In this document: positions 40,108 to 48,815 of the stretch, one piece after another
Numbering within the stretch: the stretch's first letter is position 1
Layout of the letters: each line of letters starts with the position of its first letter
Assembly: GCA_029856145.1 (NCBI GenBank)
Contig: JAHQWK010000011.1
Span: 96,001 to 160,000 of the forward strand
DNA: 64,000 nucleotides
Reading direction: 5' to 3'
Origin: Promethearchaeia archaeon
Lineage (GTDB): Archaea; Asgardarchaeota; Lokiarchaeia; Sigyniarchaeales; SOKP01
Notes under the pieces: model-generated
Told to the model about the DNA's origin: nothing
Databases searched by the model: none
What the model saw: the letters and a program-made list of their open reading frames with translations, nothing else
Translations under genes and position numbers: made by a program

Positions 40108-40199
40108 AAAGCAACTTCATATTATTTATATCCATTCTTGGATTAGCATCATTATTTCTAAAAATTCTTTGATTTTATACATCTCTCGATATAGAAAAT

Positions 40200-40853
40200 T
40201 TAGTGAGGTCTCCACTTTGAAGATATTATTATTATTATAAAAAACAACAATAGAAAAGGGGATAAAATAAAAAATGTTAATGAATAATAATAATAGAAGG
40301 TCCATGTAATGAGTATTATTGAAGCAATTAACAATGCTACTAAATAATATAGTGAATTATTTCTTTTCATTTCATATATACTACCAAATATTATTATAAA
40401 AGATCCAAAAAACATACCTATCATTCCAACACCGGGAAGATAAGACCCCCAAAGGCTCGGTGGCTTCCAAAAAAAGTATATAGTATAATTTGTTATATAA
40501 ACATATTCTATTATAATACTCAAATTTAATGTTGAAATAATCATTAATACGCTGACAGTAAACGATTCTCCAGCAAGTTTTCCAGTATTAAGATTTCCCT
40601 TATCAATACTTCTAAAAATATAAAAAGTAATAATTATACAAGCTAAAATTAAAATAGCTAAAATAAGATTTAAACCAAAAGGACTTAAAAAAAATCTCAA
40701 ACTAAAATCCTTTATTACAAAGCCCCAATAGAAGAATACTTGCCCAAATTCATTAACAACATATGATGTAAAAATCAAAGGAAATAAGAATCCAATGAAA
40801 GTTAGTATAATTCCAACCTTAAGACTAAAAATATATATTTCGTTTTCTTCCAT
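40200..40853 (-). CDS. Polytopic membrane protein (last gene of the radical SAM locus)
   Basis: About 6 TM segments; starts 17 bp after the peptide gene at 40871-41128. Confidence 0.7.
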   Translation of the reverse strand: MEENEIYIFSLKVGIILTFIGFLFPLIFTSYVVNEFGQVFFYWGFVIKDFSLRFFLSPFGLNLILAILILACIIITFYIFRSIDKGNLNTGKLAGESFTVSVLMIISTLNLSIIIEYVYITNYTIYFFWKPPSLWGSYLPGVGMIGMFFGSFIIIFGSIYEMKRNNSLYYLVALLIASIILITWTFYYYYSLTFFILSPFLLLFFIIIIISSKWRPH

Positions 40854-40870
40854 TTTTTATTTCCTATAAA

Positions 40871-41128
40871 TTAGGATTTTCTTTTTTTGATTTTAAAATC
40901 TTTCATTCTTACAGTTGAATATCCCGTTCCAGCAGGATAGGTATTTCTACTGATTTCTGCTGTTAATATAAGTATAGATATTGCCCAAAAAGAGATCATT
41001 ATTATAATTATTAGCTTAAAAATTAGCGTATACCTACTATTATTAAAAAATAGTACCTTATTCATTTCTTTATTTGTTAATCCTAATTCTTTACCAATCT
41101 TATAAAACTCGATGATATCCTTAATCAT
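40871..41128 (-). CDS. Single-TM peptide, putative radical SAM substrate (paralogue 1)
   Basis: FYKIGKELGL leader, TM helix, NTYPAGTGYSTVRMKDFK tail; paralogue at 43750-43995. Confidence 0.8.
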   Translation of the reverse strand: MIKDIIEFYKIGKELGLTNKEMNKVLFFNNSRYTLIFKLIIIIMISFWAISILILTAEISRNTYPAGTGYSTVRMKDFKIKKRKS

Positions 41129-41176
41129 TCTTTATTCCCATTTTTTATAAATTATCCATTTTTTAAATTACAGATT

Positions 41177-42301
41177 TTATATATTTAATATGCTAGAATA
41201 GATATTTTTGTATTTTGATAAAACTGTATCCATTTTTCCTTTTACTTTAAAAATTTTCGAATTAAAACGTACATTTTCTATTGCTCGTAAACAATAGGGC
41301 GAATCTTCTGAGTTTAAGGCATATCTTGTTCCTAAACAGCCTCCTTTACATTCATTCACCATATCACAGTTTTTACAATATCCACGTAAATTTTCTTTTT
41401 CAAAATTGCGATTATAATTAAAAGCATAAGGATTTGATATAATTTCCTTTAGACTATTGGTTCTTACATTTCCTTCAATAAATTTATCTGAAAGGGTTAA
41501 ACATCCTTTAATATTTCCATTGCTTTGAATACCTAACACTGAATATCCTGCTTGACATCCAACCCATGGTGCTAATCCCAAATTTGGTATGAATCTTGAA
41601 AAATAACCAATACAATGTGCTCCTATTACAGGGAGTCTTCGATAGGAGTATTTTTTAACATTAATTGCAATAAACATTGCTAATGCATAATATTCTTCTC
41701 TTGAAATCATTAATTCTTTAGGAAAGCGCCCAATAGGGACTGCTAATTGAATTTGCCAAGAAATATTTTGATCCAAAATTAAATTTTTAATTAAATCTAC
41801 TTCCTTTAAGTTTTTTTTATTAATGGCTGTTATTATTGAAACTGGCAGTTTTTCTTTTTTTAAAATCTTCATTGCATTTATAGTTTTATCGTAAGCTCCT
41901 TTAATTCCTCTAAGATAATCATGAGTTTCTGGAATTCCACCGTCTAAGCTTAAAGATACACAATCTACATCTAGTTTTTTCAATTTTTGAATATGTTTAA
42001 CAAGATTTAATCCGTTAGTAACAATTGATAAGTCCATTTTATATTTCTTAACTTCTTTCGCAATTTCAAACCAGTCCTCTCTAATTAGAGGTTCTCCACC
42101 CATTAATGCGACACCTTTATAGCCACATGAATGCAAATCTTTTACCAATTCTAACGCTTCCTCAGTATTTAACTCATCTGAACGCGCGCTACCCGCTCTG
42201 GACCCACAATGAATGCATAAACTATTACACTTTAAAGTAATTTCCCAAACTGCACAAGAATTTTTTATTCTACGGGTTAAAAGTGATATTAAACTTGGCA
42301 T
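41177..42301 (-). CDS. Radical SAM/SPASM domain protein, peptide-maturase-like
   Basis: AVWEITLKCNSLCIHCGSRAG, MGGEP, SLSLDG; SPASM GCQAG...GNIKGC...GNV...CKNCDMVNECKGGC...YC. Confidence 0.92.
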   Translation of the reverse strand: MPSLISLLTRRIKNSCAVWEITLKCNSLCIHCGSRAGSARSDELNTEEALELVKDLHSCGYKGVALMGGEPLIREDWFEIAKEVKKYKMDLSIVTNGLNLVKHIQKLKKLDVDCVSLSLDGGIPETHDYLRGIKGAYDKTINAMKILKKEKLPVSIITAINKKNLKEVDLIKNLILDQNISWQIQLAVPIGRFPKELMISREEYYALAMFIAINVKKYSYRRLPVIGAHCIGYFSRFIPNLGLAPWVGCQAGYSVLGIQSNGNIKGCLTLSDKFIEGNVRTNSLKEIISNPYAFNYNRNFEKENLRGYCKNCDMVNECKGGCLGTRYALNSEDSPYCLRAIENVRFNSKIFKVKGKMDTVLSKYKNIYSSILNI

Positions 42302-42418
42302 TGCAATTATCGGATTCTTTTTCTGAAATATAAATTGATTAAATTTCTTTAAAAACTTTTGTTATAAAAATTGAATATTTCATAATATAATCGCTATGGA
42401 GTATAATTTAATTGCTTT

Positions 42419-43753
42419 TTAATTTACGGAATAGTACTTATCGAGAGTTATGATAGGATTAAAGTTCGCTAATGGTACTGTTGACTTCTTTACGCAACTT
42501 ATTTCTGAAGCGATATCCTTTTTGATCATCTTTTTATTCTTTATATTACTAATTCTTAACAATCTTAATGTTCTCCTGTAAGTTTTTAGTGCATCTGATC
42601 TTAAATTCAATTTAACAAACACTTTTGCTAAATTCCAGTAATAGATTAAATCATCCCTAAATATTTGAATTGAGTCTAACAATTTCTCTTTAGCAATTTC
42701 ATAATTTTGATTGTAAACTTCCTTTATTCCTTGATAGAAAAATACTTGAGATTTTCTTTGAATCATTGCAGAAGAGAAAAAGAACAACTTATTCGGTTTA
42801 TTAGTTATTGAGAGTTCTTTTAGACGAGTCAATTGTTGCTGCTTTTCATTTTTGATAAACATTAATTTCTCTATTATTCTTTCACCAAATGCTTCTATTG
42901 ATGAAAATGCAAACATTTGGGATCCTGGAATTGTTGGCAGTCTTTTAAGGGAATTAAATAGAATATTAGGAAGGTTGTATTTTATTATATATTCAATTAT
43001 TTCATAAATGTATTTTATCTCAAAAATTGAAAGATAATTGATATCCTCAATCCCTTTAAGAAAAATGTTAGCTACTTGAGGAAATCTTATTAGAATGGTC
43101 TTAATAATTTCAAATATAATATTTTTATCTTTTCTTCTTTCAAATTCTTTTAACTTTAATATTATAAAAGTTACTAAATCCTCTTGTTCTTTTGCTAAAA
43201 AAGAGTCTTTAAAATCTACTAGATTCTCTAATAACATTTGTTTTCGAATATGCGTAATAACTTGAAAGAAATTCTCTTTTGAAGGCTTTTTGCATTCAAC
43301 TCTTAAAGTGGGTATTGACTCTGTGTTATAAAATTTTCTTTCCTTTATATCAATAAATCCTATTTTTCTAAGCATTTCTGCTAACAATTCTGAGGGATAA
43401 CATAACTTATGTTGAAGTCCTTTATGAGGAATACCAAATATCCATCCTAAAATTTCCTTTTGTTGTTCATAGTTTCCATTTAAATAGGATTGAAAAGCCT
43501 TTTCAATATCAGGTGTTTCTATTATTAGAACTCCATTAAACTGTAAGACTCTAAAAAATTCGCTTAATACATAGAGAGATTTGAAAAAACCAATATGTTC
43601 AATTAATTGAATTGCTTTAACTTCTTCACAAGAGTTATCGGAAAATGAGAGATTTATAGCAGACATTTGTTGATCTGCTAAGATATCTTCATATAAATCA
43701 ATATTGTAATAATCTGGCTCATATCTTCTTCCAGAGCCCACATTTAACTTCAT
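42419..43753 (-). CDS. Class I SAM-dependent methyltransferase domain fused to a C-terminal TPR region
   Basis: KLNVGSG..YYNID, QLIEHI, EFFRVLQFNGVLIIETPD; TPR-like FFYQGIKEVYNQNYEIAKEKL..YYWNLAKVFVKLNLRSDALKTYRRTL. Confidence 0.85.
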   Translation of the reverse strand: MKLNVGSGRRYEPDYYNIDLYEDILADQQMSAINLSFSDNSCEEVKAIQLIEHIGFFKSLYVLSEFFRVLQFNGVLIIETPDIEKAFQSYLNGNYEQQKEILGWIFGIPHKGLQHKLCYPSELLAEMLRKIGFIDIKERKFYNTESIPTLRVECKKPSKENFFQVITHIRKQMLLENLVDFKDSFLAKEQEDLVTFIILKLKEFERRKDKNIIFEIIKTILIRFPQVANIFLKGIEDINYLSIFEIKYIYEIIEYIIKYNLPNILFNSLKRLPTIPGSQMFAFSSIEAFGERIIEKLMFIKNEKQQQLTRLKELSITNKPNKLFFFSSAMIQRKSQVFFYQGIKEVYNQNYEIAKEKLLDSIQIFRDDLIYYWNLAKVFVKLNLRSDALKTYRRTLRLLRISNIKNKKMIKKDIASEISCVKKSTVPLANFNPIITLDKYYSVN

Positions 43754-43995
43754 TTTTTATTTTTAAAATCATTTAATTTAACAGATGAATATAAGGTTCC
43801 GCTTGGATAAACAGATTTAGATCCAACAACTATAGCGACAACTATAACAACAGCTAATGAAGCTAAAAAAAATATCAATGAAAGTGTAAATAATATAGAA
43901 CGATTGCCTGAAAATAAAAATGTTCGATTAATTTCACTTTTTTTTAATCCTAACTCTTTACCAATTCTATAAAATTGAGTTAATTCTTTGAACAT
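43750..43995 (-). CDS. Single-TM peptide, putative radical SAM substrate (paralogue 2), 81 aa
   Basis: The likely start is ATG 43995 (GAGGTGA upstream; aligns with paralogue 1), not 44115. FYRIGKELGL...SVYPSGTLYSSVKLNDFK; ATGA overlap with the methyltransferase gene. Confidence 0.8.
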   Translation of the reverse strand: MFKELTQFYRIGKELGLKKSEINRTFLFSGNRSILFTLSLIFFLASLAVVIVVAIVVGSKSVYPSGTLYSSVKLNDFKNKK

Positions 43996-44204
43996 GTTGT
44001 AAATTTCACCTCTTAAATATAGAATAATGCTATATGCTTTTTTATTATAATTACATATAAAAACATTTCTTTGGTATATTAATAGTCTAAGAGATTTTAA
44101 AGCTTTAAGGTGCACTTTTCGAACATTATGAAATATTCTTGAAATTAGGAAATTATTTTTAGCTTTTTTCCCTTAAAAGTTAAGTTGCACTTAATTTTAG
44201 TTAT

Positions 44205-46013
44205 TTAGATGGCAAGCAATCTTAATTTCTTCATGATTGTATCTTTAATTTTCTCGATCCGTTGAAATGCTTCATTAGGTACAGTCTGGCTTATTCGCAA
44301 AATTGAGTTTATAAGGTCTGGTTCTAAAAGATCCTCAATCAATATTCCTCGCTCTATAAGGTTTTTACCCTCGTTATAGATTAAAAGTATAACTTTGATT
44401 ATCCCTAATAATTTTTTAATACTTGTATAATTATCAGTGTCATCGAAAGCGTTTTGAATTAAGAATCCGTCTCTAATCATTTTTGCAATGAATAGAACTA
44501 ACTGTTGAGATTCAGGTAAATTTTTTTCTCCAACCAATTGTAGAATATGTTTCAATTCTTGTTCTTGGGATAATATCTCATTTACTTGGTTTCTACATTG
44601 AGACCAATCAATATCTATCTCTGGCCAATCTATATCTCTCTCATACCACCATTCAGAAATGAATTGGGAATAATTTGAATATGAATTCAACCAAGTAATG
44701 GCAGGATAATGTTTTAGATAAGCAAGTTTAGGATCCAAAGCCCAAAAAACTTGAACTAAACGCTTAGTTGTTGCTGTTACTGGTTCGCTGAAATCCCCCG
44801 CAGGAGGAGAAATAGTGCCAATGATTGATATTGAACCAATTCTTTCATTTCCTAAATGATCTTTTCCTAAAGTTCTAACAACTCCTGCTCTTTCATAAAA
44901 ACTAGATAGTTTAGATGGTAGATAAGCAGGATATCCTTCTTCTGCGGGCATTTCTTCTAATAATCCTGAAATTTCTCTCAAAGATTCAGCCCATCTTGAT
45001 ATACTATCAGCTAGAACTGCAACATCATATCCCATATCTCGATAATATTCTGCAATCGTTACTCCAGAAAATAAGCTAGCCTCCCGAGCAGATACAGGCA
45101 TATTAGATGTATTAGCTATAAGTATAACTCTATCTAATAATGTTTCTCCGCTTTGGGGGTCTCTAATTTCTGAAAATTGTTTCAAAATATTAGCAATTTC
45201 ATTTCCAGGTTCACCACACCCAATAAATACAATTAAATCAGCATTACACCATTTAGCGAGTAATTGCTGAATCACAGTTTTTCCTGTGCCAAAACCGCCC
45301 GGAATCGCAACTGTTCCTCCTTTTGCTATCGGAAATAATAAGTCTATAACCCTTATTCCCGTGATCAATGGCTCACGAGGATCTTCTTTTCTCATATAAG
45401 GGCGCTTTTTTGTTATTGGCCATTTTTGCAGCATTGAGAAAGATTTTTCTATACTATTTTTTTTTATTAGAAAAATCTCATCTGTGATTGTATAATCTCC
45501 TTCTTGAGCAATAAAGGATATTTCTCCATTGATAAATGGAGGGACCATTATTTTATGTTCAAAAAATGTAGTTTCTTGTATAGTACCAATAATATCTCCT
45601 GCATTGACGTTATCATTATTTTTCCTTATTGGTACAAAATGCCATTTTTTACTTCTAGATAAAGAAGGATATTTTACTCCTCTCCCTAATCTTCCATTAT
45701 TAAAATCTTCAAATACTTTTCCTAATGGTCTCTGTATCCCATCGAAAACGTTTGATAAAAGCCCTGGAGCTAATTCCATTGAAAGAGGTTCATTCAAACT
45801 AACAACTTCTTCATTTAACTGTAGGTTTATGGTATTTTCAAAACATTGACTAATTATATGATCTGAATAGATCTGAATTACTTCTCCCAGGATATTATAT
45901 TTAGAGATATTAATTAGGTCGAAAAGATGGACATGATTTTCCAGACCTTTAATTTTGATAAGCGATCCATTAATTGCAGAAATATAGCCAATTTTTATTT
46001 CTGTTTCATTCAT
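44205..46013 (-). CDS. atpA: A/V-type ATP synthase subunit A, second copy with altered catalytic motifs
   Basis: [36 protein letters not shown]; GCGEPGNE and ADSISRW replace GCGERGNE and ADSTSRW. Confidence 0.93.
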
Positions 46014-46037
46014 CTCTTTTTTTCAAGCATCCTATTT

Positions 46038-46481
46038 TTATTGGTATATTATATTTTCATTACAAAATGGACATTTTTTAACAAAATTCGGCACAATATT
46101 CCCACAATTTTTACATTTATTTATTAAAGGTTTACGGTATTCAAACTCTAGGTTGATAGGTTTAGAAATTTTAAGGTTAGGTTGTTTTAATTCCTTCTCT
46201 TCTAGAATTCGCTTTCTTTTTGTCTGTTCACTTAGTTTAGCTCTACTTTTTTTATCTGAAAACATCCTAGAATAAAGAGTTCGTTTGTTTCGTCTGAGAA
46301 ATGGTCCGATAGTAGCTAAAATAATAAAGATGAGTAAAATTGAGATAATTAAAGGGTTAAAACCAAAATTGATTAGTAGATAAAATAGGTAAAGAAAAAT
46401 AATTAAATAAAGCATTATCCAAATTAATTTCAAAATAACTTGTTTGCGTGATGGTTTATTTTTTTTGTCTTCTAGCGTCAT
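46038..46481 (-). CDS. Two-TM protein with C-terminal zinc ribbon, inside the ATPase operon
   Basis: Two hydrophobic helices, basic linker, CKNC...CPFC. Confidence 0.8.
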   Translation of the reverse strand: MTLEDKKNKPSRKQVILKLIWIMLYLIIFLYLFYLLINFGFNPLIISILLIFIILATIGPFLRRNKRTLYSRMFSDKKSRAKLSEQTKRKRILEEKELKQPNLKISKPINLEFEYRKPLINKCKNCGNIVPNFVKKCPFCNENIIYQ

Positions 46482-46521
46482 AAATTGTAGATTTTAACAT
46501 TTTTGCTTATTAAATATCATT

Positions 46522-48804
46522 TTATTTAAATTCTTTTGAGATATAACTCTTCGCTTTATCAATCTCATCCTTTACCGATTTAATTTCAATTTCTTTATCT
46601 ATCTCTTCGGAAATTATATCTTTCTCAAGTTCTCTACTGAATATCATTACTGAATAATCAGCATCAAGATAGAAAGGGAAATACTCAATGCCAGAACCTT
46701 GAAAGAATTTAAAAAAGAACTCATAAAAATGTAACCTCATCGTGTTGATAAATACAAGTAATCCTTCTATGAGAATAACGATAATATTACCAAAGATTAA
46801 ACCAACTATGTTAAGTATTTCAAAACCTATACCCTCTCCCTGAATCAGATTTCCCATTTCATTTATAGCATATAATAAAGCGACATGAGCAAGTGCTAGT
46901 GCTAGTAACCTAATATATGAAAGAACATTACTCATAACTGATAATAATGTATCAAATGTTTCAATTGATCCTTCACCTAATAATCCACCAAAAGATTCTT
47001 CCCGTAAATAGGATAATTTAAATACCTTCCCTAAGGGTTTTGAGAGTATCAGTAAAAGTCCTGGAATTAACACAAATAGTATAGGGTATGGAAAAGCTAA
47101 CCATACATATATATCAAATCCATAAGTAAAAATTAGAACTGTTCCTCCGATCAAAAAGAAAATTTTCATTAATGAGTCGGTAAATGCTAAATATTTCCTA
47201 TGTTGCTTCCAATAATTTAGAAATTGAATGATCCACCCCAAAATTATGTGAAAAATCCCAATTAATATGGAAAAATAAAATACAGATAAAATATTATTTA
47301 ATGGATTATATAAAATGATATTTGTAAAAGGAATTTTAATTGGCTCAAGATTTAAAAGAACGATGCCAAATATTTCTATTTCTTGTTTTCCAAAAAATTC
47401 ACCATATAAAAAACCAATAAAAAAAGCAGCCCATCCACAGAAAAAGATAATCCAAGAGAAGTTAGACATTTGTTTCTTTCGCTTTCTGAATACTAATGCT
47501 CCTATTAATCCACATATTATTAAAGTTAAGCCATGCCCAATATCTCCAAACATAATTCCAAATAATATAGGAAAAGTAAAAGCAATAATTGGCGTAGGAT
47601 CTATTTCAGAATAAGTAGGAGTACCATACATTTTTGTGATTGCTTCGAAGGGTCTTACTAAAAAAAAGTTTTTCATAATTCTTGGAGTTTGATCCCTTAA
47701 ATCTTCAACGCTATCAGATTCCTCACTTAATGACTTTATAGTTTCTGTTTTTACTTTTAATCTACTTTTTTTTTTTCTGATTGATTTTGAGGGATAAATT
47801 TCATAAATAGGACGCTTTTTAGATACATCAATCGAGTCAACTATTACGTTATCCTTAAATTTATTGAATAGGGTTTCTTGAATTTTATTCTTTTTTGATA
47901 AAGGAACAAAAAATTTGAGAATTGCCCTATTTGTTGAAGTTTTTTCAAATTGCTGATCTGCCCAATTATATTCTTCGATATTTTGAACGATTTCATTAAT
48001 ACCTGCAAATTTTAATAAATTATCCTTAGCGATTCTACTTTGCTCTTTGTTATACCTTAATAATAAGTCTTTGATAAAATTGATTTCCATATCAATCCTA
48101 TTATAATTAATACCTGTATCAGTCATATATTTTTTTAAAATCGGGACTTGTTCTGAATGGATTAATCGAATTCTTCCATTAAATTCATCTTCTTTATCCT
48201 TAGGATATATTATATAAAAACCTATCCGATCATCTGGGATTTCAAATGTCTCATAGAAGTTTGGGAATTCAGAAAAAGCAAAAAGATTGTTTAAATTATC
48301 TAAATTTTTATAAAATGTTGTAAAAACTTTAAATTTAAAATAATTTAAATTCGTAACGTTATTTTTTGTTATATTTATTTTTTCAAGGTGTTTATAACAA
48401 GCTTTTATAGACTGTAAATTCTCTAGCTCAATATTTGCTTTAGCAATATAACTTTGTAATTCTGTTACCCGATTTATGAAAAAATCTATTTCTTCAAGAA
48501 TATGATTAATTAATTCAGTAAAGTCTTGTGCTTTAAATTCAATTCTCTCAGATTTCTTAATTCGTAAATTTTCAATATCAGCTTCATTAATATCAAGTTT
48601 TTTAAATAATGTATTCAAATTCTTTCTTAAAAGTTTAATCTTCTCAACAACAGGCCTTTTATCTTCAATTTCTCCTTTGATTTTGGTTTTCTCTTTTTGT
48701 TTAATATGTACAGTATTTAAATTAGATATTTCTATTAAAAGTTGATCTTTATAATTATTGTTAATGTCCGCTTTCATTAAACAAAATTCATCTTTTTTTC
48801 CCAT
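46522..48804 (-). CDS. atpI: A/V-type ATP synthase subunit I (a)
   Basis: YGTPTYSEIDPT, FGIMFGDIGHG, SNVLSYIRLLALALAH (essential Arg), RLHFYEFF. Start is ATG 48804 or GTG 48813. Confidence 0.95.
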   Translation of the reverse strand: MGKKDEFCLMKADINNNYKDQLLIEISNLNTVHIKQKEKTKIKGEIEDKRPVVEKIKLLRKNLNTLFKKLDINEADIENLRIKKSERIEFKAQDFTELINHILEEIDFFINRVTELQSYIAKANIELENLQSIKACYKHLEKINITKNNVTNLNYFKFKVFTTFYKNLDNLNNLFAFSEFPNFYETFEIPDDRIGFYIIYPKDKEDEFNGRIRLIHSEQVPILKKYMTDTGINYNRIDMEINFIKDLLLRYNKEQSRIAKDNLLKFAGINEIVQNIEEYNWADQQFEKTSTNRAILKFFVPLSKKNKIQETLFNKFKDNVIVDSIDVSKKRPIYEIYPSKSIRKKKSRLKVKTETIKSLSEESDSVEDLRDQTPRIMKNFFLVRPFEAITKMYGTPTYSEIDPTPIIAFTFPILFGIMFGDIGHGLTLIICGLIGALVFRKRKKQMSNFSWIIFFCGWAAFFIGFLYGEFFGKQEIEIFGIVLLNLEPIKIPFTNIILYNPLNNILSVFYFSILIGIFHIILGWIIQFLNYWKQHRKYLAFTDSLMKIFFLIGGTVLIFTYGFDIYVWLAFPYPILFVLIPGLLLILSKPLGKVFKLSYLREESFGGLLGEGSIETFDTLLSVMSNVLSYIRLLALALAHVALLYAINEMGNLIQGEGIGFEILNIVGLIFGNIIVILIEGLLVFINTMRLHFYEFFFKFFQGSGIEYFPFYLDADYSVMIFSRELEKDIISEEIDKEIEIKSVKDEIDKAKSYISKEFK

Positions 48805-48815
48805 ACCATCCACAC

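Follow-up and report, generated by a model that had tools for sequence, protein, structure and literature searches.

What does a radical S-adenosylmethionine (SAM) enzyme with a SPASM domain act upon when it is encoded between two small membrane-anchored peptides in the genome of an Asgard archaeon? The question is raised by a minus-strand gene cassette in a 64,000-nucleotide (nt) stretch of contig JAHQWK010000011.1 from Promethearchaeia archaeon GCA_029856145.1 (the window, in whose positions all cassette coordinates are given), where peptide 2, a methyltransferase-tetratricopeptide repeat protein (MTase-TPR), the radical SAM/SPASM enzyme, peptide 1, and a 217-residue membrane protein follow one another. 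An earlier inspection of the letters alone (the sequence-only reading) had given this order, with the gene sizes, the strand, and an ATGA overlap, all of which hold, and had proposed that the enzyme modifies the two peptides. The locus is very likely an enzyme-precursor cassette. The type of chemistry is a more delicate matter, and gene content and comparison favour, on balance, a predicted variant of the two-component spliceotide systems, in which tyramine would be excised at an xYS site before membrane insertion and the resulting ketoamide displayed outside the cell.

Two probable precursor peptides inherited with their enzyme

Peptide 2 (81 residues, 43750..43995, minus strand) consists of a leader helix, FYRIGKELGLKKSEIN, one transmembrane (TM) segment at about residues 34-58, and the core YPSGTLYSSVKLNDF, in which an alignment of homologues marks Tyr63, Tyr69-Ser70 (the LYS site), and a downstream DF (43765..43809, minus strand). 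Peptide 1 (85 residues, 40871..41128, minus strand) has the same leader, a TM segment at about residues 34-57, and the core YPAGTGYSTVRMKDF with Tyr64 and Tyr70-Ser71. The two share 40% identity (E about 1e-14 in tblastn), belong to no Pfam or NCBIfam family, and are the only copies in the 3.55-Mb genome; a search of the ESM Atlas with peptide 2 gave no usable match and is uninformative either way. The 81-residue start of peptide 2 is preferred because a Shine-Dalgarno-like GAGGTGA (44006..44012, minus strand), read from the sequence, lies 10 nt upstream of its ATG at 43995; a 121-residue form starting at GTG was rejected, its extension being absent from most homologues.

Five residues (G12, Y63, Y69, S70, and F77) are invariant in 33/33 aligned peptides, with a variable hydrophobic helix in the middle. 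Of 84 distinct family peptides, 83 have Ser directly after the second Tyr and one has Gly, while nine different residues occur before this Tyr; as the pattern used to collect these 84 required the second Tyr, the invariance of that residue rests on the 33-peptide alignment. Ser stays fixed in four genera although nine residues alternate at the x position beside it, a pattern that suggests selection rather than decay. The leader-TM-core architecture put forward by the sequence-only reading is upheld, its N- and C-terminal motifs recur letter for letter in both peptides, and the YPxGTxYS motif on which it relied is conserved at its core residues.

To follow co-inheritance, 161 genomes of the class, of which 135 belong to the same Lokiarchaeia family, were queried for the enzyme and the MTase and, by means of an alignment, for the peptides. 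Genuine peptides (1-4 copies) occur in 55 of the 135, an enzyme match in 58, and the MTase in 53, and peptide-positive genomes carry the enzyme in 54/55 and the MTase in 52/55 cases, the near-perfect co-occurrence of peptide and radical SAM gene that had been predicted. Since related genomes are not independent, these figures are given as counts, without a statistical test. The three genes nearly always share one contig and lie a few kb apart, and exceptions involve truncation or contig ends: in the sole peptide-only genome the contig stops 2 bases from the peptide, and enzyme matches without peptides occur in four genomes, three of the matches being truncated (probably by contig ends) and one belonging to a distant subclade. 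The precursor genes are thus both adjacent to the enzyme and co-inherited with it.

A splicease-like enzyme and the wider precursor family

The enzyme (374 residues, 41177..42301, minus strand) is splicease-like according to Pfam, NCBIfam, and trees. It contains the Pfam Radical_SAM and SPASM domains, with CxxxCxxC and 8 further Cys of the SPASM region invariant in the family alignment, and has no N-terminal RiPP (ribosomally synthesised and post-translationally modified peptide) recognition element (RRE); nor does the cassette hold a PqqD/RRE gene, as had been noted before. Its best NCBIfam match is TIGR04103 (226 bits, cut-off 725), which we take to be the PlpX family, consistent with the plp layout of the Nostoc locus (L158), followed by TIGR03913 (192.5 bits, cut-off 591.75) and TIGR04133 (154 bits, cut-off 425). 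TIGR04103 and TIGR03913 are again the top two families for four enzyme relatives. Genuine members of these two families, from plasmids, adjoin precursors containing LYG and PYG, and share WQxQ, C228, and WxGCxAG with the window enzyme. The scores lie well below both cut-offs, and the peptides match neither Nif11 nor DUF1843, so that by these comparisons the enzyme is splicease-like yet in neither named family.

Phylogenetic placement relied on quick trees, the larger of which has long-branch outgroups. In these the window enzyme falls in a YS-associated Loki group (SH-like approximate likelihood ratio test, SH-aLRT, 99) nested in a larger archaeal-bacterial clade (SH-aLRT 95-97), which joins the TIGR04103/TIGR03913 sequences against an outgroup of two sequences; on that rooting the enzyme is nearest to PlpX-type enzymes. 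Matches of its fold to SkfB, PqqE, SuiB, and ChlB are generic, at 17-21% identity. Two further observations concern the surroundings of such enzymes. A separate splicease-related Loki subclade has a 204-residue protein ending in MYAAAPPVEWQ, a possible YA-type substrate, after the enzyme (L063:4635-5249, L064:3204-3542), and a plasmid record of the gut bacterium Agathobacter rectalis carries an unannotated short open reading frame ending in GPVMYGTGVRM just upstream of a splicease-like enzyme (L160:2698-2913).

A profile built from this family's peptides alone finds Thorarchaeia, Thermoplasmatota, and bacterial precursors beside relatives of the enzyme, with a shared leader [IL]GxxLGLxxx[ED]I and a shared tail Y-x-[ST]-[IV]-xxx-DF. 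At the position of the second Tyr, 58 such distant precursors have YG in 46 cases, YA in 8, and other pairs in 4; since YG stands here, the LYS and GYS of the window correspond in position to the XYG splice site. In loci L075 (two YS and one YG paralogue) and L058, paralogues of both types accompany a single enzyme, which suggests that the enzyme tolerates both. These comparisons qualify the sequence-only reading on two counts. A splicease-like enzyme and a core whose second Tyr aligns with the XYG site of relatives make the cassette a variant of the spliceotides rather than an unprecedented class, and relatives in Thermoplasmatota, Undinarchaeota, Elusimicrobiota, Nitrospirota, and Desulfobacterota show that it is not confined to Asgard archaea. 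The proposal that the radical SAM enzyme acts on the adjacent peptides gains support from the co-occurrence, the splicease-type families, and the shared core.

What lies between leader and core varies between lineages. Thermoplasmatota precursors carry no cargo and those of Thorarchaeia one TM segment, other Lokiarchaeia precursors have two TM segments and a shorter Y-x-V-Y tail, those of Elusimicrobiota bear a lipoprotein-like signal, and those of Nitrospirota/Desulfobacterota a signal peptide and a Kunitz protease-inhibitor domain. In four bacterial precursors directly upstream of the enzyme, a Kunitz/BPTI domain stands between the leader and an SKYG core (L137:4553-4981, L149:4445-4984, L140:4586-4990, L129:4622-5026), an arrangement that would join a folded protease inhibitor to the predicted ketoamide site. 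A homologous cassette (L060:4295-8143 of genome G050; QEE16168-QEE16170) occurs in Promethearchaeum syntrophicum MK-D1, a strain available in culture, with the enzyme QEE16170, the MTase-TPR QEE16169, and three two-TM precursors whose short, Lys-rich tails end in KYGVY, DYDVY, and LYNVY, so that YG, YD, and YN paralogues occur there under one enzyme.

Several arrangements found in the same survey are recorded here. Ten Thermoplasmatota loci (L103, L104, L107, L108, L110, L112, L114, L117, L121, L135) combine two radical SAM paralogues, which may serve the two Tyr sites, with an MTase-TPR, an AMP-binding-like ligase, and 1-6 soluble precursors of 55-125 residues, some with repeated cores. Locus L057:6521-7034 (genome G060) encodes three soluble Pro/Lys-rich precursors, starting GYP[FY] and ending PP[SRK]YGVY, between enzyme and MTase-TPR. 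Bacterial precursors at L136:3419-3781, L145:4412-4966, and L134:3591-3953 have the cores GYPCGTKYFT, GYPCGTRYFT, or GYPAGTRYAT, close to the Loki core except that the site reads YF or YA.

The MTase-TPR (444 residues, 42419..43753, minus strand), coupled to peptide 2 by the ATGA overlap at 43750-43753, consists of a class I MTase fold at about residues 1-156, a helical middle, and TPR at about 330-403. Methyltransf_11 is matched in 28/31 family members and TPR_2 in 17/31; G6, G8, D19, E52, H53, and H115 are invariant. In a structural model (predicted local distance difference test, pLDDT, 91.5) the N-terminal part matches class I MTases and the C-terminal part is helical; sequence and model together indicate a Rossmann-type fold, a glycine-rich motif I, and an acidic residue after beta-2, as in class I SAM-dependent MTases. 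Loki, Thorarchaeia, and twin-enzyme Thermoplasmatota cassettes nearly all contain the protein, whereas it is missing within 5 kb of most single-enzyme Thermoplasmatota and Kunitz-type loci, and its absence from many loci points to a tailoring or chaperone step that the core reaction does not need. The methylation of the peptides and the scaffold function of the TPR region suggested by the sequence-only reading are putative.

Proposed tyramine excision at a YS site and its rivals

Spliceases excise tyramine at XYG sites, yielding ketoamide products that inhibit proteases (PMC11414181, PMC11626197), and in two-component systems a leader helix activates the enzyme (PMC11414181). The type II spliceotides of Rheinheimera (RhaX/RhaA, RcsX/RcsA, RasX/RasA; PMC11414181, PMC11626197) resemble the window cassette in having a splicease-type enzyme beside its precursors, no separate RRE/Y protein, an N-terminal precursor helix, and a Tyr-centred C-terminal site, and differ from it in that the window site is xYS rather than XYG, a TM segment separates leader and core, an MTase-TPR is nearly constant, and the enzyme belongs to a separate clade below the family cut-offs. 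The type I systems (PlpA/PlpX/PlpY) share with it the top enzyme family and the motifs WQxQ, the extra Cys, and WxGCxAG, whereas the window lacks a Nif11/NHLP leader and a PlpY gene and its enzyme shares about 37% identity with the TIGR04103 member from Nostoc. The second- and third-best families, belonging to the TIGR03913 GDL-motif (DUF1843) maturases and the TIGR04133 radical SAM/lipoprotein system, likewise have small multi-copy precursors; these are unrelated to those of the window, which lack a lipobox as well as a DUF1843 match. TIGR04133 is nonetheless a precedent for membrane-anchored substrates. The cyclophane and sactipeptide maturases (SuiB, ChlB, CteB, SkfB, PqqE) have the overall radical SAM-SPASM fold in common with the window enzyme, at 17-21% identity and without a counterpart of their RRE domain. 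As the window peptides have LYS and GYS in place of XYG, the cassette is regarded as a variant and not filed as a spliceotide member.

Under the favoured splicing scheme, the N-terminal IGKELGL helix would dock on the enzyme and activate it in place of a PlpY/RRE protein, like the leader of RhaA, to which it is likened by description and not by sequence; no similarity to the small downstream PlpY-like Nostoc protein at L158 was detectable. The chain would leave the ribosome before insertion, because its TM segment ends about 23-33 residues from the C-terminus (median 33 in family peptides, 23 and 28 in those of the window), would be kept soluble, possibly by the TPR protein, and would be modified in the cytoplasm. 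There the enzyme would excise tyramine (-135.06 Da) at Leu-Tyr69-Ser in peptide 2 and Gly-Tyr70-Ser in peptide 1 to give an alpha-keto-beta-amide, and the MTase may add a methyl group, for which the enolisable ketoamide carbon and the first Tyr are guesses at the site. The protein would then be inserted N-in/C-out, the orientation of the N-terminus that charge predicts for 63/84 family peptides, and the ketoamide tail shown outside, or released, as a protease inhibitor. The secreted Kunitz and lipoprotein precursors fit both the logic of modification before export and the inhibitor role. Co-folding of the enzyme with peptide 2 gave 0.38 against 0.00 for the best control, contacts agreeing between runs to at least 62% and partner pLDDT being at least 64; the result is weak and defines no interface, the mark being reached by 58/80 solved complexes and 2/110 mismatched pairs, and at values of 0.60 or lower by 7/80 and both of those mismatches. 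A broader and more tentative proposal, which we consider doubtful, is a distinct splicease clade whose only requirement is a Tyr, with Ser, Ala, Asn, Asp, or Gly after it, and which would edit integral membrane proteins before insertion while a dedicated MTase methylates the new ketoamide or another Tyr.

Several points weigh against splicing. Neither window peptide has YG, and the characterised splice sites in PMC11414181, PMC11626197, and PMC10533398 are all XYG; the spliceotide systems in the cited literature have no second invariant Tyr and no MTase that is nearly always present. Modification would have to precede insertion, as the single TM segment otherwise separates leader and core across the membrane. 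Besides its modest identity to the Nostoc member and its scores far below the cut-offs, the enzyme sits in a clade of its own, and the YS enzymes have a long stem and about 10 clade-specific residues, so that their chemistry may have drifted.

A rival reading is a different radical product on the same substrate, a crosslink (-2 Da) from the Tyr69 ring to the Ser/Thr at +2, giving a three-residue cyclophane Y-S-[ST], or between Tyr63 and Tyr69, followed by methylation. We regard this as unlikely. Y-S-[S/T] does agree locally with the aromatic-x-x pattern of cyclophane-forming SPASM enzymes, both Tyr are invariant, SuiB and ChlB are among the fold neighbours, and the peptides lack the Gly that known spliceases need. 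Against it, the +2 residue in the wider-clade precursors is Gly in 6/58, which offers no C-beta for a crosslink, and Ala in 4/58, several relatives lack the first Tyr, the leading NCBIfam families include no cyclophane-forming one, and the fold similarity is of the generic kind described above. Thioether products of the sacti- or ranthipeptide type are excluded by the lack of Cys in either peptide.

A further reading, in which the enzyme is bound or activated by YS peptides that are themselves poor substrates or none, their YS being a relaxed remnant of YG and the modification falling elsewhere (on Tyr63, as methylation only, or on another protein), seems quite improbable. The idea would account for a genome whose two peptides both lack the canonical site and for the existence of decayed copies and lost cassettes, such as the remnant in genome G016, and RhaX can work without a substrate-fused leader (PMC11414181); it sits poorly with the fixation of Ser described above and with an enzyme that retains all cluster cysteines. 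Only a very slight chance is left to a cassette without peptide modification, in which the peptides would be small membrane subunits, for instance of the adjacent V/A-ATPase, beside a cofactor-type radical SAM enzyme like AhbD or NirJ. The cassette follows the ATPase A gene and the AhbD family scores 150 bits, but it is absent from that site in 21/27 informative relatives and lies elsewhere in others, the peptides track the enzyme and not the ATPase, and soluble and Kunitz-fused homologues exist; the subunit role was rejected, being largely refuted by synteny.

A literature search that included Asgard RiPP radical SAM enzymes and the MK-D1 locus found no description of such a cassette; the main splicease survey (939 predicted systems) lay outside it and may list YG-type relatives, and archaeal spliceotide clusters are already predicted (PMC11626197). 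If splicing at YS is true, the XYG rule of tyramine excision would be broken, widening a tool used for site-specific protein labelling (PMC10533398), and the YS clade would escape genome mining based on YG (PMC10849128 describes such mining). It would also mean a pathway of protein-backbone modification in Asgard archaea, peptide-fed in protease-rich sediments, and RiPP chemistry acting on membrane proteins; were the broader membrane-editing clade real, Asgard archaea would have surface-tethered, backbone-edited protease inhibitors, new for the membrane proteins of this group. The idea is testable because the cultured MK-D1 combines its homologous cassette with public raw proteomics (PXD051006; PMC11284389).

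An accessory insertion beside an ATPase gene

The whole insertion (40108..44204, no strand assigned) lies between a tRNA-intron endonuclease gene (endA) and a V/A-ATPase A gene (atpA). The cassette is accessory: 21 of 30 genus loci at the atpA-endA junction are empty, with the flanks side by side, 6 hold the cassette, and 3 are uninformative, and several empty-site genomes carry it at another place. A decayed peptide tail (IYPIGVKYLTVKIKDF) left in the otherwise empty gap of G016 (L068:1800-1934) indicates cassette loss. At the cassette border in genome G102, a duplicated 3' end of endA and the decayed start of a peptide (L073:6746-6946, L178:3250-3450) are a trace of a further insertion at this site. 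The GC content of the cassette is slightly below that of its flanks, a difference too small to signal recent transfer. No match to the radical SAM enzyme was found in a phage collection at 1e-20, and the named homologues belong to Promethearchaeota/Lokiarchaeia. A promoter and terminator scan stayed at chance level, and a repeat search returned the two peptide genes and nothing else; the ends of the cassette show neither att-like nor terminal repeats.

The 217-residue multi-pass membrane protein (40200..40853, minus strand), counted as part of the system in the sequence-only reading, is instead a variable passenger, found in 7/135 family genomes and beside the cassette in 5; it has no Pfam or NCBIfam match and was rejected as a core component. 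On the other side of the cassette, positions 44205-48813 of the window hold the V/A-ATPase A and subunit I genes with a small TM-zinc-ribbon gene (46038-46481) between them, possibly a second, divergent ATPase cluster.

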